Shown: positions 987 through 32,146 of the stretch, piece by piece
Numbering within the stretch: position 1 is the first letter of the stretch
How the letters are laid out: each line of letters opens with the position of its first letter
Assembly: GCA_977020255.1 (NCBI GenBank)
Contig: CDROCS010003752.1
Location: 124,001 to 188,000, forward strand
DNA from: Obrimoposthia wandeli
Taxonomy: Eukaryota
Direction of reading: 5' to 3'
DNA: 64,000 nucleotides
The notes under the pieces: model-generated
What the model saw: only the letters and a program-made list of their open reading frames with translations
What the model was told of the DNA's origin: nothing
Databases searched by the model: none
Translations under genes and position numbers: made by a program

Positions 987-3900
987 TCAGTTGAACATGA
1001 GGTCCTTATACTCCCGCAGCAAGGTCACGATGCTGGTCGAGTAGCTCGTTGTCGTTCGCACTACTCGAAACCTGTCAGCCCGTTCGAAATTGGACTTCAC
1101 CATTTCGTAGTATTTGCCGTCACTCAGAGTCAGCGTCTTCAGCAGGGGACACTTCAACCTGTATCCACAGACAGATATATAAACAATACATACATATCTA
1201 CTAATCTTACATTTATAGGACTAAAATAATGTTTACTGTTACTAATTCTTTATTTTAATTTAGAAATTCACTAACAATTCATTAAATTTTAATACAGTCG
1301 CATTAGGAAGAGAAAAAGAAGATACCAACAGTCTTTTGACCTCAATTAATCATAGAGTGAATCAGTAAGACAGTGTGTAACAAAACAGGGACAGCAAAGT
1401 CGGGACCAGATAAATTTCTACAATTTTAACTGTCAGTCAGAGCAAGTTCAGGAAACTGTAAAGGATATAGAATTCCGAGGAAGACACAATTGTTGAAGAA
1501 TCGAGAATTTTGACTGACGATCAGAGCTGACAATTTACGTAGGAGACAGAAGCAGACATAACTTAAGACAGAATATCTTTGTGTAAACTTATAATAATTT
1601 ATTAATTGCTTTTCTACTAATTCCTTAACTTGGGAGTTAACCATCACAGTCCTTTCAGTAGTAAGTAAAGTCGTATACTTGTAACAGTCTCCAAAGATTT
1701 TTTAATATATAAAAATACTAGAATGCTCCTGCTTCGTTTCAAAAGTTAATGAATAAAGTTTTAGGAGAATTAAACTCGAAAGAAGCCGTTGTATATCTAG
1801 ATGACATATTAATATGTTCGGAGACAAAAAAGATATGTATAAAATGATACAAAAATTTTTTAAAAGAAATAATTAATGTTGGATTAAAATTGAAATTACA
1901 AAAGTGCCAATTTATGAAGACAGCTAAAATTTTTAGGCCACATAATTTCAGGAAAAGGTAAAATTAACAAACAGATCCGACTAAAATTTGAAGATATTAA
2001 AAACTTTGAACGACCGAAGTGTGTAAAAAGTTACGGAGTTTCCTGGGTCTAACCAATTACTAAGGAAGATTTATTAATAACTATTCTGAATATGCGAGAC
2101 CATTAGAGAAAATATCAGGTAGCAATGAGAAAAAACCTTTGGAATGAAACATGTGAGAACTCATTTCAAACTTTAAAAAGGAAATTAATAAAAGCACCAA
2201 TTTCGATTTATCCTGATTTTAAGAAAGATTTTTAGTAAACACCGATGCCAGTTTTGATAGAATTGGTGCAGTATTATCTCAAGTAAATGATTTGGGTCAT
2301 GAAAGAGTAATATCATATGGGTCAAAGACTATGAATCCTCATGAAACAGGTTACTGTATTACAAGAAAAGAAATGCTGCCCATTGTGTGTTTTACAGATT
2401 ATTTTAAACACTATCTCTATGGCCAAAGATTTCGTCTTCGAACTGATCACAAAGCTATAACTTTCATGATTAAAACTAAAAGCCAATAACATCTCAATTT
2501 CAAACGTGGTGCAATCATCTGAGTAGACTTGATATGGTTTCAGATAACAGAAAATGTGAAAACCACTTAAATGCTGATGTACTTTCCAGAAGTAAATGTG
2601 GAACTTGTGTTCAATGCAAAACTAATCATGAAAATCCAAAAACAGGGAATCTGAAAACAAAAGTTTTATCACTTGATATCAAAGATATTGGCATAGAATG
2701 GCAAAGTAATTCCGAAGAGATAAGAAAATTAAAAGTAAATATAGAGATAGAAGATAATTATAAAATTATTAATAATATACTAATGACTAACAATGATAAA
2801 GTATGGTTACCAAAAGAAAGTATAAAAGAGTTGATAATGCATGTTCTCAAAACTCTATGTCATGCTGGTTGGAGAAAAGTAATTGAATACATTTCTCATA
2901 GATTTGACTTCGTCGAAAGATTAAAATTTATCAAAAATATAATTCAAAGTTGTGAAAATTGTAAGAAACAAAAAGTAGTGACAACAAGAACAAAAGAATC
3001 AAATAAAGAAAATTCGGATTACAGTCTTTTTCGTAGCGTATTTATAGATTTTTGTGGGCCATTAAAAACAACATACAGTGGAAAAATATATAATTGGTAT
3101 AATTGATCAATTTGATTCTAAAATTTGGAGCTCCAAGAGAAATACATTGTGATCATGGGAAATCATTTGAATCAAATTTAATGAAAGAACTAACAAATAA
3201 ATGTAAAATTAAATTATTATTTCAAGTCCATATCAGTAGGTAGATGTGGCACTTCTGGCACAAAGCCCCCCCCCTGAGGACAAATTTTTTTAAGGTCAAG
3301 TTGAGGACAAAAAATGTAGGTCAAGTTAAGGTCACGGTGAGGTCAAGATGTAGGTCATGGGAAAAATGTAGGTCATGACCTCATAAGATCATGACCCCCC
3401 CCCTATGCTCAGGAAAAATGTCTTTGTCCTGAAAGACACACATCAAGTAGGGGGATGTGTGTCTTTCAGGACAAAGACATTTTGAGCACAGTTTAAGGTC
3501 ACGGTGAGGACAAGATGTAGGTCATGACCTCATGAGGTCAAGTCAAGTTAAGGTCAAGTTAAGGTCATGACGTCATGAGGACAATGTACTTTAAGGTCAA
3601 CTTAAGGTCATGATGAGGACAATGTACTTTAAGGTCAACTTAAGGTCATGATGAGGACAATGTACTTTAAGGTCAACTTAAGGTCATGACGTCATGAGGA
3701 CAACTTAAGGTCACAGTGAGGTCAAAAATATTCTATTTTTAGTAACATTCTTTAAATCTATATATCTTTTTATCTAAAGACTGTATTAACACCAATTCAA
3801 CAAAATACATCTAGTGTGTGTGTGTGTGTTTTATAATTTAAATTAAATTATCTACTTATAAAATAAAGTATTATATAATTTGATAAATTTATTTAAACTA

Positions 3901-6900
3901 AATTAAATTAAACTATCTACTTATAAAATAAAGTATTATATAATTTGATAATCATGTTTAAACGTTCCTATATCTATCTAACAAAGACAGTCACGTACTG
4001 CATCTATATTGCAAAAACCTGCAAATTTATGTAAATAAAGACAAGTATTTTAAACACATATATTCCTTAAAATCACAAAGGAGAATAAAAATATGTACAA
4101 CACATATAAAAAGTTTATACAACCTCATCCGGGTATAAAAAGTGACCATAGGCGACTGAACGGTTTTTCTCCACCCACTTGCGCTTATCATCACTACTAC
4201 TTAAGGCAATTTTACTTAACCTTAAAGTGAAAAGTTGATGATTTAGCGAGCTTATACGTTGTTGTTGTACACGCTCGCTAACGCCACTCTCATATACGGC
4301 TAAGTAATACGAGTGCCTAATACTCGTCTGTCGGAGACTAATACCTTTCGCTCTCATCTGAGATTCACCTGCTGTAGTCTCTAGGCTATATGATTTTGGT
4401 CGTAGAAAAATCCCTTGCCTATAACTAAATAATCCCTTACTCTCATCTTTAAATTTTCCTATCGCTGTATTAAGCGTCGTATAAAGCGGATGGGTTTTTG
4501 GAAATTTCGAGGTATCCAACAGTCCATCGGCAATCATAGCAGGTAACAGTGATTCTTGAACATTGACATTATTACACTTCAAGAAAAAGCTATCAGTGTC
4601 ACCCGCTATAATTCTAATGTCGCAGTTAAATTGAACTCGATATTTCTCCAACTGCTCATATTGTAGCTCATACATACGAAGTTTGCTTAAATCTAATACC
4701 GCCTGGCCCATGTAACTAGGACGATCCAAAACAATATTTTCCTTATCCAGTAAAACTGCAATAAGGTCCGTATCGATTTCAATTGTCCTACGAAAGTGGG
4801 CTTTACTGCAATAGGTAACCAGCTTCTGTGGAGTATTACAATTCCGGAGGTTAATTCTTTTCATCAGATTCTCAATGAGTTTTCCAAATAAAGAATTCAC
4901 CTTCAGTTTATAATAATCCCGCTCGAAATCTGTTGTAGCCGCAGCTCTTTTGAGAGAATTATCCTCAATATATTTTGAAAAAACATTAGTTTGTTCAAAC
5001 TGTATTGCTCTATATACAAAATCTACCTTAGCACCAATTCTAACGTACATTTGTAGCAATCTAGAATGCACAACATAATGTTTCTTAGGGTAATGTGTTA
5101 ATAACAATTTTTTAGTCTTACACCCTGGTGGACGCTGTTTAATGGGAGCAAGGGGAAGATCGTCGAATTTATTATGAAGCTCGAAGGGAATGGATAAATC
5201 TATTTCCAATAAATGAGCGAAGCGACTACAGGATAAATCTGCTGATTTTAAGCTGGAAATAATATTCCCCAAATCTAACCGATCAGTCACCCAGGAAAAG
5301 TTACCACAAGGTAAAAACTGGGACATAGCCCACCCGTACAAATTATTTACATCAATGTACAAAAGTTCTGTACCATCGATGGCGTCAACGCGGTGTTCAT
5401 TAACAAATGTCCTACCCCCGCGAATCCCAGACCGGAAGAGTCGGTACATTTCTGGATCCTGTATTAGCTCGACTCGCACAACGGGAGCAGAAGAAGAAGC
5501 CGGACGAAGCAGGGATTTGAAAGCACTCGCGAAAGTCAGTCCTGGAAATAAAATCATTTATTAAAATCATTGTGAAAATCATTGTGAAAATCATTGTGAA
5601 AATCATTACTTTGAAAATCATCTATCTAACAAAGACAGTCACGCATCTATATTGCAAATACTTGCATCTTTATGTAATCAATAGTAACATTTATTCTTGT
5701 ATATATATATGTGTGAGTATCTAACAAAGACAGTCACGCATCTATATTGCAAATACTTGCATCTTTATGTAATCAATAGTAACATTTATTCTTATACATG
5801 TATATATATATATGTGAGTATCTAACAAAGACAGTCACGTGTGTGTCTAACAAAGACAGTAATCAATACCTACAAAGATAGTCACGTGTGTCTAACAAAG
5901 ACAATCATCAATACTTACAAAGACGTGCTGCATCTATATTGCAAAAACCTGCATCTTTATGCAATCAATAGTAACAAGAACTACATTTATTCTTATACAT
6001 GTATATATATATATATATATATGTGTTAGTGTCTAAAATTAGAAAAAACTAGTAGAATACAAACCAGGAATGGAGAAGAAATTGAGTGGCTCCAATCCAT
6101 CGTCAGCAATGGCCTTGGTCCGGAATGCTGTAAACACGTCTGCTAGAAGGTAGATGTCCATCTTCATATAGACCAGCATATAGTCCCAGAGCGATGAGCA
6201 GCCGCTCTGAGTCCAGACCATCTTCGCCATCTGATATTGTGCTGGCTTGATCTTTTCATCCCACTTTGGCGGTAAGCTGGTGATTGCACGAAGAGCAGTC
6301 TCTGATACTGCCATATCGTATGGGAAGATTCCCTTGGCGCTCACCAGATGTTGCGGGAAGACCGAATGTGTAAGAGGAGTCACACCCAGGTTTTTCTAAG
6401 CTGCTGTTCAAAAATTGAAGGGAATCGATGAAACGTATACAGACTCCTCCAATATACACCATCATAGCCTGGAATTTCTCTGTTGATTGAGGTATAACAG
6501 ATACATTCCAGTCGGGAAACTTGCATAGTGCGTGCTTAAATATGTGGTGCATGTCATAACCCATAAGATTGTGAAAAATGACGGGAAAAGATCGATTGAT
6601 TCTACTTGATAAGTTGCATTTCGTATGCGCTGCTCCCAGGTATTCGCCAGTCATGTGATCGTGATCTCGAACGTTGTTTGCGAGTTTCTTCTTACACAGA
6701 TAACAGATTCTTGCTGCATTGAAACTCGATACCTGTTCCTGTGTGAGTTGTCGCATCACCTCGATCGCATGCTTCTTGTACCATGGGAGTACAACCTCTT
6801 TCACCAAGTCCTCTAATTTCTGCAAAAAGGATACCACACAAGATTCTCCGGTAAAGACCGAGTAATCATGTGTATACCCTCTCGTGGCTGCAACGGGAGA

Positions 6901-9900
6901 CATGAGCATATCGGCCGAGATTGGAAGTTGAATCTGATGGTGGATTCCATGTGGCGGCAGCACAGCCTCAAAGTCCGCGTAAACAGCAAAAGGCGGAGAA
7001 ATCGTTTTTGAAAAGTCCTTAAACTCAATATGCTTCTCTGTAGGCATTGAATAAAGCGTTGTATGATCTAAATTCATCCTACAGAGCGGAACGTGTTTGG
7101 CGTAACTTATCGGACTACGGAATCCATGAAGACACTTATGGCACCAAGTACACCGAATGCAATTAGATACACCTTTGTTCCTATAATTAAGCAGCCTATT
7201 GAGTTTAGGAATACCGACATAATGAAAATTATCATTATTTTCTAAAAGGAGAAGATTGATTGGCTTAGCGTCCGGGTTTGTGGTCCTGTAAATGACATCC
7301 ACATAGGGATTTTTGAAGATATCCCCATCTGTTTGCACATTAGAGAACCTATTGAATGTAAATACGTTGATTGAGAGAGATGTATTCTTTCTCTCAAATC
7401 GCGGTATATTACATAGACGCATCGGCATCTCATTCTCATCAAAAACTAATTGACTCAAAAGGGCATCATATTGCTTAACCCGCTGAGGATTAGTACGAAA
7501 TACGTCGCGGAAAAGTATAGATAAGATACTATAAAGAAAGCAGAAAGTGTTTGAGTTCTGCACATTGATAACGCAATGTGACAGTGCTAACTCAGATGGA
7601 GTAGGTATATAACTATAGATAGTTCATTGTCGTTGTTTTAGTCACAACAAACGAAATCTCCAGGAAGCGGTTCACTACCCAATTACTGCTACTTTGAGAA
7701 TAATTCTCAATCTTCTTGTTGATCCCATCTACTCCCGCATCTATAAACCCCTCATCTATGGGGAGCCCTCTATTGGAAAAATTCCAAGCGCGTGTTTCTC
7801 CAATATTGGAAAATTCAACACGCACCCCGAATTGAACCTTGCAAGTCGCAAACTTGCTGACTGTGTCCCTTAAGCTAGTCAAAAGGGATACAGGAACTTG
7901 TAAATCGATGAGATTGTCATTAGAAACATCTAATGACAATGTCTCAATCGTACCCCGAAGACTAGTCTTACGCTTAACAGCATTAACTTTGGAAAACTTC
8001 GCAACAGAGCTACCTGAAGTGGGCATAACACTTCTCTTGCGGGTAGATGCTGGTAACGGCGCGGGGATCATACCAACTGGAGGAGGCATAACTGGAACCA
8101 TTGGTGCAGCAGATGGTGGTGAAGCAACTGGACTAGAAATTGGAACAGCAGCAATTGGGGTAGATACTGGAATAGTAGCAGAAATTGGGGCAGCAATTGG
8201 CGAAGCAGCAACAACTGGACCAGCAACCCGAGAAATAGTAGCAGATCTATTCTGAAAGATGGCCTTCTTGCCACGTTGCTGGAAATGACGAAGATGGACA
8301 CGATGACGCGCCACAAACTCCAACCAATCAATCTCCTCCACGGAGAGACATACTGGACATACGTAGAATTGTTGTCCGTTGAACTTCTGTCCAAAGTAGC
8401 TCTTCATTTTTCCGTCACATTCCTTGTGACTCTCCTCGAAGCATAATTCTTTGTTCATATTGCAATTCTAGAAAGAAATAAATTAGCAGAAAAAATAACA
8501 ATAAACTTACCATTTTCAATTTCGTTTATAATAGGGAATTATTTGTTGATTGATGCTTGCTTATATACTATTTTCGAGCTAGTATTAAGCCAATCAGATT
8601 CATTCATTATTTAAACCAACCAGATTAATTTAAAACAGAATAGTTTACTGACAGATGTGAGTAGTTGAATTTTCATTAATATTTAAATAATCCAAACTAG
8701 CTGCAAAGCATTTCTTGTATGCACAATGCTCGCCATGTTTAATATATGGACAATTGATATTTGATGGATTTAATTGTTTTAATGTTTTCGAGTAATTTAT
8801 CACTCTAAATTCAGGAAAATATTTATTGATTGTCTTTATTTTAGCTCCATTATTTTCATCGAAACATAGAAAATTGATTTGGATACATCACAACAACGTT
8901 TTATTTCCTCAGTTATTTCTTGTATCTTGAAATAACTATTACCATCAACTAGTTTTAGTCGATGGTAATGCTTAATGAGATATCTATTTATTTTTCTTGA
9001 TTTTCTATTCATCATGTCCCATATGGGTTGCATTTTAAAAACATAATGTTTAGGATAGAAGATTGCATCCACATCCATTATACATAGTTCTTTTATTACA
9101 AATTCAGTATTATTATCAATAAAAGCTTCAAAATCAATAAAATAAACAGACATTTTTATAGCAATAATTTTATTTGATATTGTTTATATCTATTGTTTAT
9201 GCTTTAACCAAAGCAGACAGAGTTGTCCACATGACTGTGTTAAAACATTTTGATAATGTTTCTTACTAAAATGTACTTTCTTTCCAGAGTCAAGTACTGT
9301 AGATACTAATTTAGAAGGGTAATATATCCCAAAGGGGTCAAAAACAAAGATTTCATTTTCTTTAACATGTATTGCAATCCAATGTTCACCACGCAAATTA
9401 GATGAATGTGTATTGATTACATATCCACCTAGTCGAGTCAAAGAGGGGATGTGATCAAGGCTGTAGACTCCATTGAAACGCGAACCGAGTAGTTTTCTTC
9501 CGCTTTTTGTTATCTCGTCCGAACTAGAATATATATTAATTAATAAATTCAAACTGACTTACTTCATTTATATATCTTCTTTATTGTTTTCATTCTGTTT
9601 ATACTAGTACTGTTCCTCTCTTGGTAATTTGAACCTCAGAATCGAATACTCCATAGATTATAATATTAGTAGGGTGTTCAAGTGCTTTTGAAAACTTGAT
9701 TTCTACTTTCAAATTTCCCTGTTTAGGGATTTGAGCTTGATTAATATTGAAATCAGGAGAGAGAACAAATGTGAACAGTGTATACTTGTCCTTGAAATCA
9801 GTCATTGAAATTCTAATATTAGCATCCTTATCCAAATGACCAAGATTTCTAATTAAAGATTGCACATAAGAAAACACATAATCATCGTTTTCAAAGTCAT

Positions 9901-12900
9901 TCGTATAAGATTCTTGATAATCAATATTTCGTGCAAGTTTAATTGAACTCACATTCATGTGTCCAAATTGAGAAACCTCATTTTTAGACTCACCTCCATA
10001 GGTAGAAGTGTTTTGGAAAGCAATTAAAACAAAGTTTGGAAGTTGCATATCACCAAAAATCTGATCCTTGTAATAAGATAGTGCTCCCGTAGGGATAGCG
10101 TGAGAAACAAGATTAGTTTTTCTAATAGGATAACATGCATTTTGCTTCTCCAACCCCATTCGATGTGCAACAAGTACAGATGGTTTCACCTTTACTCGTC
10201 GAACCAGCAGTTTTGCTTCCGTAATCTCAATTGCGGTTTTAATAGTATCAGCGCAAACAACACTAAAACCTACTGGATTTCTCTTCATTCGAATATGTGC
10301 ACTTACACCGGGTAAAAGATACTTTGGTTGCATAAAGAAATCCAAATGGAGACTCCCACAAAGTGACAATACTTTAGACTTTGCAATCGAAGCAATTCTT
10401 CTTTTTTCGTCATTGTCAAACCCAATTGCATCAAGATTAATCAATTTCGTATCATTACCGTAATTCAACAATGTTTCAATCATTGCTTTATGGGTGTAAC
10501 TAGTATTATTTCCCTCAACTTTCACATTATTGAGACTGAGAATCACATCCTTGAAAAGAGTATGCAACATGTAATTAGCTGATTTGATATCCATACCATC
10601 ATCCAAATCACCTCCACCTTCCTTTGTAACTTTCAATTTAACGAGAAATAAACTATCATTCAAATCAAGATATTGAGTATTGGATCCATTAATATTGAAT
10701 TCTAAATCCGGAGAAGATGTCCCGTTAACCGTATTTGTTGGAAATATTTCTTCAAAACTAGCACTATCAACCACAACCTGAGGTATAGGTTTATCGAATA
10801 TACACAATTCAGTTTTAGCACAACTCATTACTTAAAAATTGTTCCACCTAGTTTCAAACGTTTGTTTATACCCGATGCTTTAGATGTTTTCTTACGTTTA
10901 TAACCACTTCCCTTTTGAGTTTTCTTTTTCAAAAATTCAGCTAGACTTGATCCAAGGCTGCATCCTTTAGTGTGGGAAGAAATTTCTCATCACCAGACAA
11001 GTATTTTGATCCAACATTAGCAATAAATTTCCCGAGTCGCTTGAGTAGTGGGAAAGCAAAGCGACCAAAAACCTTCATCCATCCTGATCCATACTGTTTT
11101 CCGGCAAAATAAGGCAAATCACCTCCTTGCATCGGTTTACTATACGCATCGATTATACTTGAATCAATCATATTTTTCTAAAATGTATTGTTAAACTTGT
11201 TTTAGCTCCAAATGAAAATTTAATTAATCTTCCTGAATCATCCCGAATGTTAACTTCAATATTGTTTATAGAAGAGGAACTCACAGGAATATACATTGGA
11301 TTTTCAATTGGGATATGTATAATATCTCCATACTTGTGCTTTTCCTGTTGAACCCAAATAGATTTTATTAATGGAAGTTTATTTCCACCCACAAATATCG
11401 GTTCAGTAATACTTGTGTAAATATAAATCTGATTATACGCATTACTTAGCTTTGCCCGATTAGATGCTCGGAAAACTTTATTAAGATTTTTAAAACTGTT
11501 TTCATTGAATCCTATAATTGTAGCTAAATTTTTATTCATATTTATTTATTTTACATGTGGTTTCAATTTAAACTTAATTATCTCCTTTTTAACATAAAAG
11601 CTTTCAAATATATTATCAATATTTTTCATGAAATATTGACAAAGACTTTCAACATTGGAAAATAAGCAATCATTTTCGAATGCATACTGCTCACGTACAT
11701 CCTCTTGATTATAATGATGCATCTTTAACTTTAATGTCGGTAAATCATATTTTTGATTTGGTAATTCCGATTCATAAAACATACTTTCAATAGGAGCTTC
11801 TTTCATACCGTAATTTAATGCTAAACTTTTATTATCAATTTCTAAATTGAAAGCTTGTCCCGTAGTGCGAATTATACAAATTTTGTTTTCGCCGCTAAAG
11901 TAAATAACATATTCACTATTAATTGGAGTTAAATACTTGACGAAAAATTCTCCATGTTTCATTTTCACACCAGCTTCAACTTCAGTTTTTATTCTTTTCT
12001 CCGCAACATAATCTATAATTGACCCTCCTTTAATGGATAGAGGAGAGTAATTGAAAGAAAATTCCGTCAGAGCAGCTTCCCAATGCCCAGGTAAATTGAT
12101 TGAGCTTTGATAATCAATACTAAAACTATTAGCAGTATTATTCGGCTGAGTTAATGGTGAACCATTACTTGGTAATACAACATACATTGAGTTCATTCTA
12201 TTTGAGAAGCTAATATCCAACTAGGTTCAGTATATCCATGCCACTTAACATGATATTGTTTATGCTTTCCTCTACCTTTTGTCTCTAAAATTTCTTGGAT
12301 TCTATATACATTTGGTTTCTCAGGCCAGACTTGTAATTCCTCATGATAAAATTTACCCGTGATTACATTATTGGTTTCATCCTCAATGAAATACATTACC
12401 GGCATACGTTTATTATCAATTTTAGTTATACGAAATACTTCATCGCTCCAATTCTCTTTGAAATTCTTTATAAAAGGAGTAGTACTAATTTGAGAAATAC
12501 GTACATAATCACCAACTTTATACTTGGGTTTCCGCGCAACTTGACTTTGATTACGGCATTGCCAAATTTCCATAGCATTCTCATCTGTAACATCAACGGG
12601 TCTCTTTCGGTCTAATGATGAGTGTTCACTATGATTGTATGCATGTATTATTTGAGGTAAAACAGTAACCCATGACTTATTTCCCTGCTTTGTGAAATAC
12701 TTTTTCAAACGATCTCTCAATGTTCGATTAAAACGTTCAACTAAAGCGGCTTTATATTGGGAAAATACTGAGTAATGATTAATGTTAGTTTTTCAATAGT
12801 GTTTCAACATGTTTATTATAAAACTCCTTTCCACTATCCGTTTGGAAATTTCTTGGTTTTATTTCTTTAATCAAAAGCTTCATTGCGGCTAAAACATCGG

Positions 12901-15900
12901 TACCAGACTTGGACTTTAATGGAATAGCTCGCGCGAATCTGCTAAAGACATCAACACAAGTTAAAATATATCGATATCCGTCGTTAATACTCGCATACGG
13001 AATCATTTCCATCAAATCTGCTTGCCATAAATCATTCGGGCCGCTCGTTTTGTATGATCTCGTTGGGACGTCTCATTGGTTTGTTTAAGCTGTAAGCTAA
13101 TTGATTTCTCAACCACGCCTGAGTTTCCTGCTTTGTCTTCTTTGACTCTTTTGCTAATTTTGAAACCCCTGTGTAACCGACGGGATGACTTGGATCGAAC
13201 CATATTTTCTCCATTGCAGCAAGACGATTTGATTTTTAAATTGAATTTAGGAATAGATGGAAGTGATCCCATATATAAATTCATATTATTGATTCGAATT
13301 TATGTTTATAATCATCGGTTTATTAGTCTACTAGCAAGTGCACCAACTATTGAGCTAATAATTGGTACGAGAAATCCTAAAAATCCACCACTTTGCTTAT
13401 AAAGCAACTTACGTTTACCGATTCGTGTTTTGGCATGAAACAAAGCAAGTAGAGGTTTCTTATGCCGATTCAGGTTAGCCTTGACAATTATTTTACCAGA
13501 AACTATTTTCTGTATCATATTAAGTAAATCATCAATTACAAAAGTAGGGAATGATTTAAGAATAGCTGGGCGGCGAATAGCAGGTGCACGCATGAGAGAA
13601 TTGAAATAGGCAATACTCCTAGATTTCTTAACAACAGTTCTTTTCGATTTTTGAGCAACCATTTTCCTTGCACTTAAAACTGATTTAATCAATTTTTTAA
13701 CTTCGGGTTTAACAGTTTTCTTTTTAAAATTCATCTTCTCAAAACTGGTTTCTTTGTTTGTTTATAAACGGTTATTCCCGATGGATTGAATACATCAGTT
13801 CTATCTCTAAAGTCATCGGGACAATCTTGAGTAAAATCAATAAAAATGTATCCATGAGGAATAGTAGTTGCATCTTGAAATGAATCAATTAAAAACTTTC
13901 TATTATTCGGGTAAGCTTGTCTTGAAACAAAATCAACAACCGTCTGATCACGTGGATTCTTGAAGAGAACAAGGTAATGTACATTTAAATTACGAGTTCT
14001 ATGGTTCCCTCCTTGATGAAATAGATTTTGTGTGATGAAAATAACAGTTACTTCCCGATGTCGTGCTATTTTAGTGAATAAATTATTGAAATCACTCTCT
14101 TTATTTGCTTCTTGATATAAATCATCAATAACAATAACATCATGTCGTTGTAATCGCTCAGACCAATTATCATCGAATCCATTAATGACTTTTATATTTT
14201 TGATTTTCTTAAACTCTTTACTGGTTAAACCAGCTTCTCCATCTCCTCCCTGATGCCAGTATATTTTATTAAACTTAAAACTAAAGTATTTATTATTTTG
14301 CAGTAATTTACATACAAAGTGTGTTTTCCCACTACCACTAGGACCTACAATCTGAAAAACTGAATTATTTTTTAAGTTCATATTAAAAATATTAGATTAT
14401 CGGGATAATGTTTATAAGACAAAACTATTTAAAATATTTTATTACGAAACATCCAGCAACAAACAATAAAAAACTCTTCTCGTAGAAAAAGCTCCTTTTC
14501 TCTTCTTTGTTTGCGAGTTTCTTCTGATTGTATCCCTGAATGAGAAGATTGACTGCCTTGTCGTGCACCATTCTTCTTACGTGCTCCTCCAGGGGTAGAT
14601 TTGAGACATCAATGAGTTGCAGGACATCTGGTTCTATGACATTCTTCGAGATGAAGCTCTTCACCGCCTTGTCAACATCTTGATTGAAATAGTTTTTAGA
14701 CATAATGATGATGAAGTAAAAAGTAATCTGCTTATATACTATACATCTGAAATCTGATTGGTTAATAAATACACTGACTAATAAAGACACTAAAGACACT
14801 GACTAATAAAGACACTAAAGACACTGATTAATAAAAACACTGATTAAAGATAAAGACGAATAAAATTTACACATAACGATTAAAAATACGTATTTGATGA
14901 AGCATAGCTTCATTAGGAGCAGCAATAGTCCGTTTAGCTTTAACAAGATTCGAAGCAGCAGTAACACCAATCGAATGAGATAAAAATGCAATATCAATGC
15001 AAGCAGCATGTAAACTACCATAATGACCACATACTAAAATCTTACCACCATTTTCGATAGTTTCTTTAATTATATTATTAGTCTGTTTATAATACTTCAT
15101 TATTGTTTCTCCTAATTTTGAGTTTACAAAGACAGAAGTATATTTTAATTTCTTATAAGATATTTTATCCAGTATAGATGTATTGATTACATGAGTGAAA
15201 TTGGAGTTCAAAATATTAGTTTCATCAAACCCATCTCGATAATTACCAATATATAATTGATTTACTAAAATCTCACTCATCGCTGTTTTGTTTAACTTTT
15301 CTACATTAAGTTGAGCAAATCTAGCACTAAAAAACTATCAAAAAGATGGGTCATGTGGTTCATTTCCATACTCGAAGCATGAGCTATTATGGGTTCCATA
15401 AAAGCCAAAGCATTTAAAAAATCTATCCGTCTCTTATCTTCAATAATTGGATCTATAATAATTTCTTCTTCTATCGTCACTTCTTCTATCGTCACTTCAT
15501 CAATAGTTTCTTCTCTTCTTATAACTGTTGTTGTTGTTGCTGGTGGTGATGATGTTACTGATGATGTTGCTGGCGATGATGTTGTTGGCGATGATATTGC
15601 TGGTAGTGATGATGTTGCTGGCGATGATGTTGCTTCTGGTGCTGAATTGATTTTCTCCATTTTATCAATTCCGAGTCAATTTAGTCTTATATATTAAACA
15701 AGGTTAGATTTCATTGGAGCATCAGTTTCATCATATGATTTGATTGGAGTATTATTCAATCTTTCCATTGTACTTAACATCTCATGTAAATGTAGTTGAT
15801 GACGTAACCTAAAGAGTTAAATAAACTACATATAAATATTACTCATGATTATTTTTCCTAATTAATGCATTGAGAATAACTGAAGCAAGATCTTTTAATG

Positions 15901-18523
15901 CATCCTGAACCTCTTTACATTCAATAATTTCATCCATTTTATGATAAAGCAAATCAAATATTGTTTATAACCCATGAAAAATCTATTTTTAGACCACAAC
16001 TATTTGCAACATTACAACGTTTGCAACTATTTGCAAGTATTGACATGTGATGTCTTTGTCTCTAAGATAAATCTATTTTTAGACCACATTACAACTTTTG
16101 CAACATTACAACTATTTGCAACTATTTGCAAGTAATGACATGTGATGTCTTTGTCTCTAAGATAAATCTATTTTTAAAACTATTTGGTTTAGGAAATAAA
16201 TAACACAAGTGTGAAGATCTATATTAAACAAAATACATTCAATCAGATACTCATAGTTTAAAGATTTAACACCGAGTATCATAATCTTCCCGCTAGCAAA
16301 AATGTTCACGCATAGGGGATTGTATTTGACGTATCGAAGTCCCGGGAAGATTTCTGGCTCGTAAACAGCTTCCGATCCCATACTCTTGCTCATCTTGTTT
16401 AGGTTTATTGATGTTTCTAGATTTCTGCTGAGACTGATTGATTGGATTCTTTCGATTTTTATATCAAAAGGAAGACTGCTTTCATCCAGCACTGTTTTGC
16501 AACCCATTATTCTGCATGTACCTAAATTATAATTATATATAAATGTAAAAATAAATTACCAGATTTGAAAATGATAATAGTGTAACCTTCACACTTGAGT
16601 CGATACTGATGAGGCTTCGAAGTCCGAAATGGTAAGTGTTGGTTGTTACTTACAACCATTCCCTTGTAATTAATATTCACTAATTTGATATTGTGAAGTA
16701 GCATTTCTGATTATTATAAACTGATTTCTTCTATTTATACAATTTGAACATCTATTTTTAGATTTGCTTAATTGCCTATGCTATGAAATCTAATATTTCT
16801 TACTCGTCTAATGATAATTGTCTTGCAATATGGACATGTAATAAAACGATCTGAACATTTAATACACGTGTTTAAGTGACCGCATGGTAAAAGTGCCACG
16901 GAAATCGCATCGCTCATGCAAACAACACATTCGGGATTTGGTAAGAGGTACTCGAGATAATTTATCCGATGTTTTGATTCAGATTTTATTTCTAAAGACC
17001 TTAAATCCGTTATAAACTCATATATAGAATCATATTTGTTACCGAATGTTTTAAACCTATTAAGTAAAACGGCTTTGATTCTATCATGACTGTAATCACG
17101 TTTCAGCAAAACTATTTGACGAGTTTCCATCTGAGCATCAATTTCATCATTACTAATATGATATTCAACAATACATCCGTTCTTGATTCCCATACTAAAT
17201 GCTTTACAATCTCGAGTATGAAAGATCAGACATAGTATCAATAAGGTCAAGTCGGGGTACTGCTTTCCGACAGAAACAACATCGATAAGAATCATTCCAA
17301 ATATATACATTATCGAAAATCGATAATGTAGGTATTTCAATACCATTAGAATAATTATTGCGCACAATAACTACTTTATCCATTGGAGTTGTATCAAAAT
17401 CAATTTGGGTGGTGTTGGAATCAATTATTGGTACGTTTGAAACATTCATTTTCAAAACAAACGGGCATCTTGGGAAAAATAGCTGATGCTGTTTCATTGG
17501 TTTCAGATAGTACTCCCATCCCGATATTCCTCCCTGACAGTAAATACACTTTACATTATCTTTCGAATCATCGTGCTTGTAAAATCCTGCTTTTGCTAAA
17601 GCTTTCTTAAAGCTTTGGAGGATAAACAATTGAATATTTCAATTTATAATTGTCAATATGAATTTCGAAAAGCTATATCTACCTATGCATACATATTATG
17701 GATATGAAATGCACTTTTTGAAGAAAGCTCATAACTATAATTTTATTTTTCCTGTCAACATCGAGCCGCTTAAATTTGATTTTGAAATATCAAATTTGAC
17801 TTCTGTGGATAAAGAGAGAATCAATATTCTCCTGACTCAATTCGGAATCAACTATGCGCTTCAGGAAAACAAATTCGTAATCAAAGGATCAACTGCCACT
17901 TTCAAGCATGAGAATGGAACAATATACGAAGCACCTCCTCCTAAGCTAGAATGGATTCTCTCAATCAGAATTCAAGGATGCAAGATCGGGCCCAGTGGAT
18001 TGGAAACTACGATATGGAAAATAATTGATGCTGTTAGAGTTGACTAATAAATTTTTGTGTCTTTATTTGTATTATTTTATATATATAAAAACAATAGTGA
18101 TACTTTAATATTTATTATGAAAATGACTAAAAAACCTACTAAATCATTAAAGACTAAGGTTAAAAAGACTATGAGTAAAAAGACTATGAGTAAAAAGAAA
18201 ATCATGGAGGGTTTGGGTATTCATATGATGGCAGCAAATCTTTTAGGTAGATGGTTTGGTGGAGTTGATAAAAAAGCTATAAAGCACAAAAAGAATGTGG
18301 ATTATTTGAGAGGTATACAAAATCAGAAACGAGTGCAAAAAGGAGATGGTATACAAAAAGGGGATGGTATGCTTGATATTTTTGTAAAATTAGATAAACT
18401 TACAAAAGCATTTGAAAAGGATCCTAGTGCCTATCTTGGTCCAAAACTAAACATTTTAGCAAACCAACCAAAAACTTTGTAATTACATTGCAATATAGAT
18501 GCAGAGTGTCTTTGTTAGACACT

Positions 18524-18580
<57 letters not shown>

Positions 18581-21500
18581 AAGAATAAATGTTACTATTG
18601 ATTACATAAAGATGCAAGTATTTGCAATATAGATGCGTGACTGTCTTTGTTAGATAGATATAGGAACGTTTAAACATGATTATCAAATTATATAATACTT
18701 TATTTTATAAGTAGATAGTTTAATTTAATTTAGTTTAAATAAATTTATCAAATTATATAATACTTTATTTTATAAGTAAATAATTTAATTTAAATTATAA
18801 AACACACACACACACACTAGATGTATTTTGTTGAATTGGTGTTAATACAGTCTTTAGATAAAAAGATATATATATTTAAAGAATGTTACTAAAAATAGAA
18901 TATTTTTGACCTCACCGTGACCTTAAGTTGTCCTCATGACGTCATGACCTTAAGTTGACCTTAACTTGACTTGACCTCATGAGGTCATGACTTACATCTT
19001 GTCCTCACCGTGACCTTAAGTTGACCTCATGAGGTCATGTCATCACCGTGACCTTAAACTGTGCTCAAGGGGGGGGGTATGCTCAAAATGTCTTTGTCCT
19101 GAAAGACACACATCACCCTACTTGATGTGTGTCTTTCAGGACAAAGACATTTTTCCTGAGCATAGGGGGGGGGGTCATGACCTCACGAGATCATGACCTA
19201 GATTTTTCCCATGACCTCATGAGGTCATGACCTACATCTTGACCTCACCGTGACCTTAACTTGACCTACATTTTTTGTCCTCAACTTGACCTTAAAAAAT
19301 CTTGTCCTCAGGGGGGGGCTTTGTGCCAGAAGTGCCACATCTACCTACTCATATCATCATTCAAGTAACAGACAAGTTGAAAGACAATTTCGGACAATCA
19401 GAGATTCATTAAATTTAACAATGAAAGATAAATGCTCTAAAAATTGGGCTGACGTTCTTCCAGAAGTAGAGTTCTCTATGAATACTACTGTACAAGCAAC
19501 AACAAAAAGAGTCAAATGGAATAATATTTGGATTTTTTTTTCTTGAATGGTTTGAAGAAAAAGAAAGAGACGAAGACACATTTAAAACCTACAAAAACAG
19601 AATTAATCAAAATAATGAAAATAACTTAATTGAAAATAATTATCGACATTTTAATATCGGCGATGAAGTATTGTTAAAAATATATGTTCGAAATAAGGAT
19701 GATAATCGCTAAGAGGGTCCTGGAGCCATAGTAAAGAAAATACATAATAGAGCTTTCAAAATAAAATTTCCCAACGAAATATGTAAAGAAAGGAATATAA
19801 AATGAATAAAACAATTTAAAACACCAAGGGAGATCTAATAGATTGTGTAAACTGTGGTTTAAGGACCTACGGTCTTTAGGTAATATGTATACTGGTGAAT
19901 GTGTGATTGTGTGGTATGTTTATATTGCTCAATAATGAACTATATATATCCTCAGCACAACAATGAATGTTGTTTATTTATTAATATAGTTATGCCTGAA
20001 CTTCAGTCTTCTAACAAGATTCTTTATAAAATACAAGACAAAATCCAACACATGAACCTTCACATTTTGAAACTACACAGGAAAGGCCTTTCACAAAAGT
20101 CCTATATCATTAAAAACTCACAACTTAAAAGCTTCCATAAGAAGTGTAATAACTCTAGTCTCAACAGTTTTATAGGTCCTTTAGTGGGCCCGATAATTTT
20201 GACACATTAAATGGAGCTACTTAGTCGTTTTTTCTCATGAAACCCAGGGAAAATATAGACGGGTGTAATCAGAGGCGGACCCAGTTTTGATAGTCAGGAG
20301 GAGTGAAGTATCTTTTGACTACATGTTCATTTTATTTTTCCAGATTTTTCATGTTTGATTGTGTGTTTCTTTTAATTGGTTAATTTAATTTATTCAATGT
20401 GTATAGTTACAGGATCTGTAATTGTATTGGCTGTTATTTTTATTTTATCTAAAGCTGCTTATTTGAAAACGGTGGCGGTTGCTAGCAAAAAAAAGTTTGT
20501 CTTCTGTTCACTTTTTATTTATTTCGTTTTTATATCCCGAGGTTGTTCATAGTGTTAGTCTTGGTGTTAATTTCAATTTCAATGTATCTTAAATATTAAT
20601 TATTACATAAAATAAAATTACCTCATGAACTTAAACTAATAATGGACATTTTGCATTTGTTTCGAACTATCAAATAAAAATGATTCCATATTAATCATTA
20701 TCTTGTAATGAGCTACGTTTTAGTCAATAAAAATATAAAAATAATATATTCTAAGATATTTAAAATTTCACTGAAAAAAAACTTATACACATTTAGAATA
20801 TATTTAAATTGTCTACAGTACATTATTTATTGAGTGCCCTATAATAATAAAAAACATTTTGAAAAATAAAAGCACTGATTATTTAGATTGATCTTGAAAT
20901 CTAATAATATTTTTTCATTTTGTCGGCACATACTCTGCTTACTCCCTAACTAGGTTCGCCACTGGTTGTAAACTACTTGAATTTCTTATATTTTCTAATG
21001 TAATATTTTGTTGCTTAAGGGGTTAAGATTTTGAATCGAAGTGACACTATTTCATATACCTAATATTACATTAGACGATAAATTTGGGAATAATAGGTCA
21101 AATTTGTCAAAAGTGTATATTTGTATTTTGTTATCCATAATGTTAATGATACAGGTCCAAAGTGTTGGAAGGGCTAGGTTTCAGTGTACACCATGATAAG
21201 AAGACACACCTGATGTGATCGATGAATTTGCGGCTCTTGTCGCTGAAGCGGATCGTGTCGGGGTCCCACTGGATCTCAAGGGCCTCTAGCTGGGGACAAT
21301 TCTGTGCAAAGGCCTCCACGATCTGGTCGATGTGCACTCGCGTATTGTACTTGTAGAACCATCCATCAGCAGCCCCCAGGACGCAGATTCTAACACGGCC
21401 AAAGGCCATCATAGGACGATGAGCATATAACACTGTTCATTATTATTTATATTCTAGGTGTTCTGAGTTGAATTTGATGAATGACTTATGATGAAAGATT

Positions 21501-27500: not shown

Positions 27501-30500
27501 AGTCAATAGATATAAGTCACCTGAGACACCACAACAAAAGCACATTAGGGGATTTAGAAGCAGCAATGTGAAAATCACAGAATTTGATATTCTGTGAATA
27601 CACCACAATAACTGAGTGGATTTAACCAACGAAAAAGGAAACAGCAGTATCACAGACATTACAGAGGTAATTTTGGAAATTCGATGGCGAAGATTAGTTA
27701 AGAAGACAGACAGCCGATCACAAACACAAAAACCTGAAGAAGACAATTTGAAAAAGAGACACTTTAAGACGATTTGAGAATTTGCAAGATTTGAAAAAGA
27801 TGAATGCACGCTCAAGATTGAAGGGACAAGAACCAATCAATGAAAGAAAAACCTACATGGACCAAGGATTCCTCGAAATTAAGGATATTCAACGGAGTCT
27901 AACAGATCAAGATGATCACGAGAATTTTTAACTTCTACCCTTCTGGCTTTGTTAAAATCACATTATCCTGTAAACGGCATCAAAAACAGTTGGCCCATAC
28001 ACATCTGGAGTTGCGGTCATTGTTCTACAAATATTACGTTGTTTACTCTTGTATTTGTATTTTGTGGGCAGCATAATTAGTAGTTTTTCTGTTTGATATT
28101 AAAAATAAAAGATTGTGAACCTTTGATAATTTGATTTAACCTGTTTACTGAACTAGTAACGACTAATTGTATAACAAGCATTAACACAGAAAAATAAGGA
28201 ATTTAGATCATAGAATATTGCTTTGGATAGGAATTAATTTGAGAATAATAGTTTGATAAACAAAGATCTGACTACGTAATTTATCTAGAATATTCAATAT
28301 ATAATTGAGGCAAATATAATACATTAACCTTCAAATAGTTTTTGAGACTAAAATTATATGCCGTACATACAAGTCATATCGCTCTAAAGAATTCACGCAC
28401 TAGAGGCTTTCCTAATAAGTATTTCAACTCTAATCTCAACATTGATAAAAAATTGCTTCTCAATTTAAATTTGAAACTGTATAACAATATATGACCAGAA
28501 TAAACTAGAGTAAACTTACATTGTCTGTAAAGAAGTCACAGTGTCCGACAGACAGATATTTCAGATGGTGGATCCGCAACAGAATATCTTCCAAGCAGGC
28601 ACTAGACAGCTCAGTAGAAGATATATCCAGTTCTTCTATGCGTGTCTTTAGCCAATTTACAGATTTCATGTGGTTGTCTTGCAGTCCTGAGAAAGTAAAA
28701 CTGAGTAAAGTTTGCTAGCGTGCATTACCACAGTGTTGCATTATCAGGGATCGCATCTTGTTGCATCTCTCCAGCAGTAACCGTAATGACGATCCTTTGA
28801 CCTTCAAACAGAAGCTGAGAGAAACCGTCTCCAGATGAATGCAGTTATTGGCCAAAAGCTCCACATGACTGTCGTCTACAAATCCGATGCCATACAAGTT
28901 GATTACTCGCAAGTTTGGAGTATGCGCCTTGATTTTACTGATGTTGATAACCTTAACACAAATTGAAGCCGCTTATAATACTAAGTAGTATATTTTCTGT
29001 TAAATTACAATTTAAATTTGATAAGAATTGCTTACTTCGTAAATTTCTTCTTCTTCTTCACTAGACATCTCGAATGTTCCTGCAATTTAAACGAGTCAAC
29101 CAGATATTTCAATAATTTTTTATTCAAATAATTTTTAAATTTATTACAACATATAGTCGCAGTATTTTGCAATTGAGAATACCACCAAATATCAAATATG
29201 ATTCACAATATAGGAAGACAATTCAAAACTGAGAAATGAGCCAATTATTTCCTTTTCAATAAACTATGAATTTGATGATTTCCATGATTCATATGTAGCT
29301 CTTTGCTATAAATCAGCAGTAAGAATTGACTTTTCATTTCGAGGTTGTGTTTTATGACGAGTGAGCGTAGCGAAGGACTTCTAAACAATACTAAGGTGAT
29401 AAACGTCTTTTACTGTCTTTCAGAAAAATCTATTTCTTTAACATAATCTGAAAAAATTAAATTTTCCTGCATATAACAGTTTTTCCTGACGGGGTTAACA
29501 CGTTTTCTTTTGAGTTTATTTGTGTGTAGTCGGGTTTTAAAATAATATTTTAAAATTAAATGAATGTTGAGATCAATATTTTATTTTAACATATGAAATA
29601 GAACTATAGATTTTAACATAATTTTTCAATTCTTAACCAAAGATTATAATGCAGTTAGAAATCGAAACATTTCAGAAGTAAACCAGTGCTTAAAGCGTTT
29701 TCCGTATTTTCTGATTGAATATTTTCATCTATAATTTCTGTTGGAATAGTTGCACATACTCGGCTAAAACAATAGCCAGTATAATAATCGTTTAATTCAA
29801 GGAACATAGCAACTTCTTCAGAAGTAAGCACAATTGTTCTAATGCCCATTAGATAGACAGTCAATCTGTTGTTGTTGAAATGTTAAAATATACGACCCAT
29901 TCTCTTTGTTTCATTTAAATAGAAAATGACATATTCATCATGTGGCTCCTTGTTTAGATACAGAATATGTTACCCAAAGTCCACTATTAATATCAATATT
30001 ATGCTGTCATATTTATGCACAACGCAGGCCACCAAGAAGTCTAAATACATACGATTGTCTTGTGTGTTAAATGTTTATCAATATTAGGTTTACGGGTTAA
30101 ATATTCTTCTCACTGTTCATCTGTAAATATTGCAGCTCCAGTTGGAACATATCCACCTTGACAGCACTGGAAAAGCTTATTTAGACCTGGCAATATATCT
30201 TGTTGTTTCTTACCTCCACGATCTTGGTATTTCGTAATAAGTTTAAAATATGAGGACTAAATGTTTATAAAAGATTGAGCGTCAAATCTATGGCACTCGC
30301 ATGGTACTTGTGACTATTTTGTTGCCAGATTTTGTATTGGCTGTAGACTAAAATTTTCTAATTAGACACTTATGATAATGTTAAAATGTTAAAATGATGC
30401 TAAAGTTTAAAATTGGCTTTAAATAATAACTTTTAGCTTGGAAATTAAAGTTTGGTTTTTTCTTTAATTATCTACAATGAAAAACTAAATGTTCAGAAAA

Positions 30501-31012: not shown

Positions 31013-32146
31013 CTGAAGCAAATGGAATGGATGAGATGAGAAGTTTACGGCCATATATGTGTTTCGGGGATGGAGTAGAAGGTACAAATTCAAAAATATA
31101 TTTAATTTGAACAAATCAAATTGAGTTCACTAATACGAAAAGATCAGTATTGTTAAAGAAGAATAGGAGATCAGAAACTGTTAATGAAAACTTTCTATAC
31201 AAACACAGTACTTGTCCTTTATAGTGTGTGGAATAACTATGCCGCCATCGTAATGTGGGTTTCACACATTAGATATAAACCACATTATTCATCATACAAG
31301 ATTTTCTTAAACGGTTACTAAGTAATATAGTTGTTTCTTGAATTTAAAATTATGTAATTTTTTCTTTAATCGGGGAATATCACAACTATCATAGTTGAAT
31401 TACAGTTAAAAATATATCTTTGTATAATTGAATAAAAACTATTTAATTTATTTGTTACTTTTGTAGTTTTTTATGTGCAACGTAAAACTGTTATTATCTT
31501 AAATCATGGTTATCACCGGTAGAAGCTCTGGTACATGTATCAGTACCAAGTACAACTGAAATATACCCTAAAACTTCGACTATGGTGCGTGCATTTTAAA
31601 AAGAAAACAGACACAGAAAACTAAATTTTGTTAAAAATTGGTGATGCACATTGTATAATATAGCTCGAGGAATTACTACATAAACCACAACATTGAGTTT
31701 TATATTTATTACATGCTAACGAGCTCCTTCTTTGACACATGTTTTGGCATTTAGATAAAGCAACTACAGGACCTAGCTTTTTCTCAGGATCAGATCTCTC
31801 ACATCAGGAACGAAACTACATATAACACTGTAGGAACCTTTATCTCCATTAGAGTCACTGCCACGTGTTTCGTGAATGACCTGAACACTGATCAGAAGAA
31901 TCAGTGGCAGATATGTCAAGCTGTCGGTAAAGGATTACGAAAACGGGACCACTCGATATGGTTGACAACTGTTTGAGGTTTTTTTGGGGTGAAGGGGAAT
32001 CGTGTATTATTGCAAACTTATAATGACAAAACGCATTTGATTTTAATAAACGGTTTTAGCAAATTATTCTATTAGTCCATTGTCATCTTTTATAACCTCA
32101 AGTAGGTTAAAATAAAATAAAATAATTGAGCAATTTTCACTCCATC

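Follow-up and report, generated by a model that had tools for sequence, protein, structure and literature searches.

Do the GT-AG segments in the genes of a Maverick/Polinton, a kind of element usually described as intron-free, represent spliceosomal introns? Introns are unusual for such elements, and the question is raised by a Maverick at positions 3235-19349 of a 64,000-nucleotide (nt) stretch of Obrimoposthia wandeli DNA (GenBank assembly GCA_977020255.1, contig CDROCS010003752.1, positions 124,001 to 188,000), referred to below as the window, from whose first letter all positions are counted. The original prediction, made from the letters of the window, had placed at least four spliceosomal introns in the genes of this element, here called I1 to I4. 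Comparison with related elements indicates that I1, I2 and I4 are very likely real introns cut out by host splicing, because related families have them at identical coding positions and other families lack them, while for I3 the case is about evenly balanced.

Splice signals

All four segments start with GT and end with AG on the minus strand, and their ends, lengths (43, 523, 34 and 38 nt for I1 to I4) and phases agree with what had been predicted. When the flanks are translated separately, I1 is in phase 0 after a lone ATG, I2 in phase 1 within the Gly of a FFSIP-G-L motif, I3 in phase 2 and I4 in phase 1 within the Gly of a TBP-like IFKS-G motif. The segments are A+T-rich (73-92%) and, together with their GT..AG ends and pyrimidine-rich 3' ends, show the features of U2-type introns; a branch-like word is present in I1, I2 and I3. 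A mini-intron pattern, which was drawn up after the introns had been seen and misses I3, matches five strings within the inner element, where 200 local shuffles give 0.93 on average and 6 at most. GT-AG signals by themselves are weak evidence and it is the comparative evidence that carries the case. Four sequencing runs look like DNA, with even and very high cover, introns included, and have no bearing on splicing: among the 15 read joints seen of about 1200 none skips I1-I4, and none skips I3 in the complete joint list of one such run for 15660-16000. One further GT-AG string of 42 nt (11936-11895) was considered as an intron and rejected; it lies in frame inside an open reading frame (ORF) and is probably coding.

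Probable introns of the polymerase gene

8511..8513, minus strand: predicted first coding exon of pPolB, ATG only; the ATG stands right before the donor in 20 of 20 copies and in five family-B loci
8468..8510, minus strand: I1, putative GT-AG intron of 43 nt, phase 0; 19 of 20 copies and families B and D
6065..8467, minus strand: pPolB exon 2 (N-terminal and exonuclease part); ratio of non-synonymous to synonymous polymorphism (pN/pS) of shared variants 0.25
5542..6064, minus strand: I2, putative GT-AG intron of 523 nt, phase 1, before the polymerase-motif part; 20 of 20 copies and sister families
4115..5541, minus strand: pPolB exon 3 (polymerase part); shared-variant pN/pS 0.22

The element belongs to family A, of which 20 other copies were fetched, and was compared with Mavericks of families B, C, D and E and of a further one that we call the 49% family. 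I2 is almost certainly a real intron. Its GT..AG ends are found in all 20 other copies of family A, where it measures 484-506 nt, and at the same codon family B (76-78% identity in exon 3) has a GT..AG intron of 138 nt in 11 of 12 loci and family D (75%) one of 45 nt in 12 of 12. In family C (54% identity in exon 3) 17 of 20 loci read on across this position without a break, as do the loci examined of the 49% family and family E. Among viral-contig relatives, 12 of 14 ORFs match the piece upstream of I2 and run on in one frame; of 150 library proteins 120 match this piece to its end, and all 120 continue for more than 200 residues past the I2 site. Coding sequence flanking I2 is thus contiguous with that of intron-free homologs, no residue being lost or gained, and the same holds for I4; for I1 this check is indirect only, and I3 has no homolog to compare. 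In a midpoint-rooted tree of exon-3 proteins with 28 rows, the 20 outside ones hand-picked from best matches, families A, B and D form one clade (100/100) from which D branches first (96/90), and the other rows are intron-free at the I2 site. One gain of a short intron with later growth would be the simplest reading. The interior of I2 in family A consists largely of copies of the element's sub-terminal repeat, with matches to the right-end region at about 18488-18660, and shows no blastn likeness to that of family B at E<0.01.

The window copy of the gene matches the PolB profile on one piece (PF03175, E 2.5e-5) and is 47-54% identical to full-length relatives, one of which (P0002) matches the same profile with E 6.7e-28. 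This copy is decayed and contains two frameshifts, near 7620 and near 6390. Both breaks were considered as introns and rejected, as 19 of 20 other copies are open across each. Exon 2 is open in 6 of the 20 other copies and exon 3 likewise in 6, both together in one. To separate decay from selection, variants present in two or more copies (shared), taken to have arisen in replicating lineages, were distinguished from singletons, private to one copy. Shared substitutions per 100 sites amount to 2.7, 1.6 and 6.3 at codon positions 1, 2 and 3, singletons to 10.0, 7.4 and 9.1; pN/pS of the shared variants, 0.25 before I2 and 0.22 after it, compares with 0.67 and 0.59 for singletons. The exons on both sides of I2 are under purifying selection and, since all copies carry I2 with stops in every frame, both halves of PolB were selected while the intron was present. 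Shared non-triplet insertions or deletions (indels) number 12 in 566 intron nt and 6 in 3830 exon nt (p 1.8e-7), compared with 8 and 39, respectively, among singletons (p 0.25).

I1 is highly probable as an intron. GT..AG is kept in 19 of 20 other copies, at 42-44 nt. Family B has an intron of 41-42 nt after the ATG in five of the six loci scanned, the sixth stretch failing to match the anchor, and family D one of 44 nt after a first exon of three codons, in all four fetched loci and one further locus. In family D the next in-frame Met lies 20 residues downstream, beyond an N-terminal Cys/His pattern. This pattern is shared by the intronless relatives P0002 and P0003, including a Cys that precedes the internal Met of the window copy.

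The probable intron of the TBP-like gene

16560..16704, minus strand: TBP-like cargo gene exon 1; 44-73% identical to its counterparts in four other families
16522..16559, minus strand: I4, putative GT-AG intron of 38 nt, phase 1; 28 of 28 loci with the gene
16157..16521, minus strand: TBP-like cargo gene exon 2; PF00352, E 1.3e-12

That I4 is a real intron appears extremely probable. Its GT..AG ends are present in all eight of the first 20 copies that hold the gene, and in 28 of 28 such loci when pooled (51 loci, 30 of them picked for an identical peptide downstream of I3). Introns of 37-39 nt occur at the I4 codon in family B, in the 49% family and in one further family, and the family C gene is contiguous at this site. 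Shared variants in exon 2 comprise 10 synonymous and 5 non-synonymous ones over 62 and 238 sites, respectively; in exon 1 they are too few to judge. A TBP-like gene is present in at least five Maverick families.

Several observations weigh against regarding these segments as introns, or against leaning heavily on parts of the evidence. I4 is without a branch-point-like word in our scan and the I2 donor, GTTTGT, is weak. Families A and B have an in-frame Met three codons past the I1 acceptor, from which a slightly shorter protein could be made unspliced, and the N-terminal Cys/His pattern occurs in just 2 of 81 long library proteins, so that it is a local feature of the clade. Within I2 there are (TA)n and tandem repeats prone to indels; the excess of shared indels is therefore partly mutational, and the indel counts depend on the alignment. 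The tree covers exon 3 only, with the midpoint root and the hand-picked sampling given above. Finally, I3 has no support outside family A.

The small ORF and I3

15843..15937, minus strand: small ORF, first part, with 31 whole codons ahead of I3; no Pfam match
15809..15842, minus strand: I3, GT-AG candidate intron of 34 nt; GT..AG in 44 of 45 loci holding the region (pooled)
15694..15808, minus strand: candidate second exon of this ORF, open for 37 codons up to the stop

We favour an intron here only slightly, and the alternative, that the small ORF ends at a stop just inside the segment (32 codons) or that there is no gene at all, is nearly as probable. GT..AG is kept in all 16 of the first 20 copies that hold the region and in the 44 pooled loci listed above, the spliced frame stays open for 37 codons downstream, and the segment has a T-rich 3' end and a branch-like word. 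Six of nine common exon variants are synonymous in the spliced frame, as read by hand from one DNA run, two of them private to the window. On the other side, without splicing the frame meets a stop at the second codon position of the segment, and the 34 nt of I3 are fewer than in every other intron placed here, the short class of which spans 37-47 nt. Shared variants in the first piece, three non-synonymous and one synonymous, make no selection visible. Neither piece of the ORF has a match in Pfam or a homolog in the sister families fetched; in the four family-D loci fetched for an I3 homolog and the TBP gene, the neighbourhood is without that region.

Probable splicing and possible origin of the introns

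Taken together, the segments in the polymerase and TBP-like genes are likely ordinary introns that are probably removed constitutively by the major spliceosome of the host. A possible course of events is as follows. The element would be transcribed in the nucleus by host RNA polymerase II. Its genes would have gained short A+T-rich introns, about 35-45 nt long, with a single gain of I2 on the stem shared by families A, B and D. A well-splicing intron would not be purged and would spread with its family, because the element, as we propose, copies itself from DNA to DNA with pPolB and never via cDNA. I2 would then have grown from about 45 nt (D) to 138 nt (B) and about 500 nt (A), its interior tolerating changes in length, and growth in family A may have proceeded through uptake of copies of the element's own sub-terminal repeat. 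I1 would place the start codon on a micro-exon upstream of the conserved Cys/His motif. With such a layout the polymerase could likely not be produced without host splicing; the introns need not regulate anything.

The host has a class of short introns into which the short introns of the element (34-45 nt) fit. Among 20 introns placed in host chaperonin and TBP genes, a small sample in which short introns within profile matches are under-detected, three measure 42, 43 and 47 nt and 17 measure 69-854 nt, two of them placed only loosely. The likeness to host mini-introns that had been proposed is thus seen in three of 20 host introns, the other 17 being longer. The host mini-introns of 42 and 46 nt that had been named within the window come down to two unverified strings of 42 nt and none of 46 nt, and for the suggested adaptation to the host spliceosome we can point to no more than the fit to the short class.

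It is unlikely that the introns came from elsewhere already formed, I4 as part of a TBP gene captured from the host and those of PolB as introner transposons. Cargo genes of nematode Mavericks contain introns (10.1101/2022.07.12.499685) and introners are found in Polinton-like elements of dinoflagellates (PMC11957031). However, at the position that corresponds to I4 host TBP and two TBP-like host genes are uninterrupted, so I4 was not taken from those host genes, and family C lacks it as well; an older intron-bearing donor is possible. The interior of I2 is element-derived in family A and unalignable between A and B, which does not suggest introners, with the limit that short introns, including the 45-nt one of family D, were not searched for genome-wide.

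We also consider it improbable that I2 is a regulatory switch, in which retention, intronic polyadenylation or an inner stop exon yields a short product and full splicing the replicase. Such a product would hold the terminal protein, vOTU and exonuclease parts without the polymerase palm, as I2 lies just before the polymerase-motif part and the domain order is TP-vOTU-EXO-PALM (PMC11161782). Reading through I2 meets a stop within eight codons. In all 21 copies I2 contains three or four sense AATAAA, three of them within a module that is also found about 100 nt past the stop of the right-end gene. It also has, again in 21 of 21, an internal AG about 32 nt from its start and an internal GTAAGT, with an in-frame stop in the piece between them. 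But families B and D carry the same I2 without the module, AATAAA is expected by chance in DNA of 73% A+T, and the 12 shared and 28 singleton substitutions in I2 give no clear sign of constraint. It is correspondingly doubtful that family A turned I2 into a switch tying replication of a very high-copy provirus to the state of the host cell. The splice-regulated replication envisaged by the original prediction is without support, since features capable of switching occur only in the I2 of family A.

It is very improbable that the segments stem from the decay of dead copies, be it as insertions or as GT-AG strings formed by chance: the window copy is indeed decayed, both long PolB exons are open in only one of 20 other copies, shuffled sequence also yields mini-intron-like strings and Genewise misreads decay insertions in vertebrate Mavericks as introns (PMC8097293), but the decay lesions are private, 19 of 20 others being open at each frameshift of the window copy, while I1, I2 and I4 occur throughout the family and turn up again, with different interior sequence and GT..AG retained, at the corresponding codon of families whose proteins diverge by 22-50%, and the exons on either side are under purifying selection. 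Comparison with homologs, which had been named in advance as the means of exposing simple decay indels, was carried out and leaves these three introns standing. Self-splicing group I or group II introns are implausible because the lengths at these sites are only 34-45 nt.

The element and its setting

3235..19349, no strand assigned: Maverick/Polinton element; termini and 6-nt target-site duplication read directly
3235..3995, no strand assigned: left terminal inverted repeat
18636..19349, no strand assigned: right terminal inverted repeat
9190..9558, minus strand: adenovirus-type maturation protease; PF00770, E 4.5e-4, just below the cut-off
9599..10831, minus strand: candidate major capsid protein, likely double jelly-roll; Atlas feature score 0.98 to its cluster
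12193..13215, minus strand: retroviral-type integrase; PF00665, E 3.3e-12, three pieces in the window copy
13731..14396, minus strand: A32-like packaging ATPase; PF04665, E 3.8e-6, above the cut-off
16768..17638, minus strand: IAP-like cargo gene (BIR and RING); PF00653, PF13920

The element has the long terminal inverted repeats, ends starting with AG and 6-bp target-site duplication characteristic of Mavericks. It is inserted in retrotransposon integrase-like DNA with the 6-nt duplication on both sides, and identical 6-nt duplications flank seven of the eight other copies, among the 20 fetched, with both ends visible. The family is high-copy, with at least 40 scored matches; 39 of the 40 matches listed span the full query across I2. 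Its genes encode pPolB, protease, a probable capsid protein, integrase and ATPase as well as phosphatase, TBP-like and IAP cargo. The integrase pieces of the window copy were matched to sister families. For the capsid candidate, searches of Pfam and of PDB sequences gave no match and no informative match, respectively; its Atlas cluster has PF21738 in 30% of members and the recognition value lies below the threshold of the tool. The cargo block (14867-17638) consists of a dual-specificity phosphatase, the TBP-like gene and the IAP-like gene (BIR and RING), and our literature search found no paper combining Polinton, TATA-binding protein and inhibitor of apoptosis. A part of it, 16071-17611, is missing from many copies of the element. 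The IAP-like gene of the window copy has a frameshift near 17215 and a shortened 5' end, and other copies have extra DNA at 17610. The break near 17215 was considered as an intron and rejected, the gene being one ORF in six of eight other copies.

In 8 of 20 copies a variant replaces window positions 11000-12029; it is about 84% identical as far as 11614, cannot be aligned over 11614-12029 and may reflect the exchange of a module in a structural gene. Non-coding modules that share a short motif (15940-16200 and 18488-18660) are repeated downstream of the TBP-like gene, inside I2 and along the inner edge of each terminal repeat. Elsewhere in the window, a G+C-rich exon of a host F-box protein (30485-31126; PF12937, E 2.7e-13) stands within A+T-rich, repeat-filled DNA.

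The Maverick load of this genome is very heavy: protein divergence separates at least seven families, whose members often lie inside one another; four genome searches gave 4216, 31084, 1907 and 2222 first-look candidates, which are not copy numbers. GT-AG intron-like segments were seen by eye in further families: two in the 5' region of PolB in family E (L115:1000-1500), two in a gene upstream of PolB in the 49% family (L088:4300-5900) and one before the PolB start in family C (L128:4780-4990), where it overlaps the start of a TBP-like gene on the opposite strand. The family-D site has at least 40 matches at 99-100% identity. In all five family-D loci examined (contigs C6199, C3445, C2232, C6361 and C3353) the family-D polymerase stands back to back with a family-B block of capsid, protease and polymerase; this composite has two polymerases, no integrase or ATPase match between them, and its ends were not found. 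Among host proteins, TBP is of animal type, its N-terminal part being best covered in flatworms and other invertebrates. Its gene occurs twice, head to head, within about 2.5 kb (C238:871800-874000), and more than 20 intronless chaperonin-like ORFs of about 550 codons on different contigs, beside intron-bearing host chaperonin genes, form an expanded family.

Comparison with known systems

Dependence of a polymerase on host splicing is known from other DNA viruses of the nucleus, namely in the E2B region of adenoviruses (pTP/Pol) and in the polymerase genes of chloroviruses. Adenovirus Pol and pTP begin on a tiny upstream exon, like the layout predicted for I1. These are free viruses with demonstrated transcripts, and no common ancestry of the introns is implied. 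The presence in one genome of families with and without the same introns, and of a 45/138/500-nt series at one site, would make a natural system for studying intron gain and growth, and the introns would imply that the replicase is expressed in the nucleus in dependence on RNA polymerase II.

Polinton-like viruses (PLVs) of cryptophytes also contain introns, in their case group I introns, 309-376 nt long, within a short gene that precedes the capsid gene (PMC12220804); the introns there and in other PLVs are self-splicing, unlike the GT-AG introns, mostly of 37-45 nt, described here. Closer in type are the spliceosomal-type introns of dinoflagellate Maverick-Polinton-like elements (PMC11957031, PMC12166617), introners mostly inserted after integration into single elements (PMC11957031). 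Those of O. wandeli differ in that they would be inherited through replication of the element and predate the split of families, and no introner features were seen, short introns not having been searched for genome-wide.

A survey of protists assumed the elements to be intron-free and used prokaryote-style gene callers (PMC10120064), and in vertebrates intact Mavericks, defined as such by intronless ORFs, are without introns (PMC8097293). Because surveys make such assumptions, intron-bearing families would be scored as broken or missed. Our literature search, with Repbase, the 2006 Polinton paper, subscription journals and supplements outside its range, found no report of fixed spliceosomal introns in core genes of animal Mavericks. 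In nematodes the core genes are intronless and introns occur in the cargo (10.1101/2022.07.12.499685). The element described here shares with vertebrate and nematode Mavericks (PMC8097293; 10.1101/2022.07.12.499685; PMC10748475) the inverted repeats, the 6-bp duplication, pPolB, integrase, ATPase, protease and capsid genes and the carriage of cargo. However, while their core is described as intronless, here two putative introns lie in the core gene pPolB, family-wide and common to several families.

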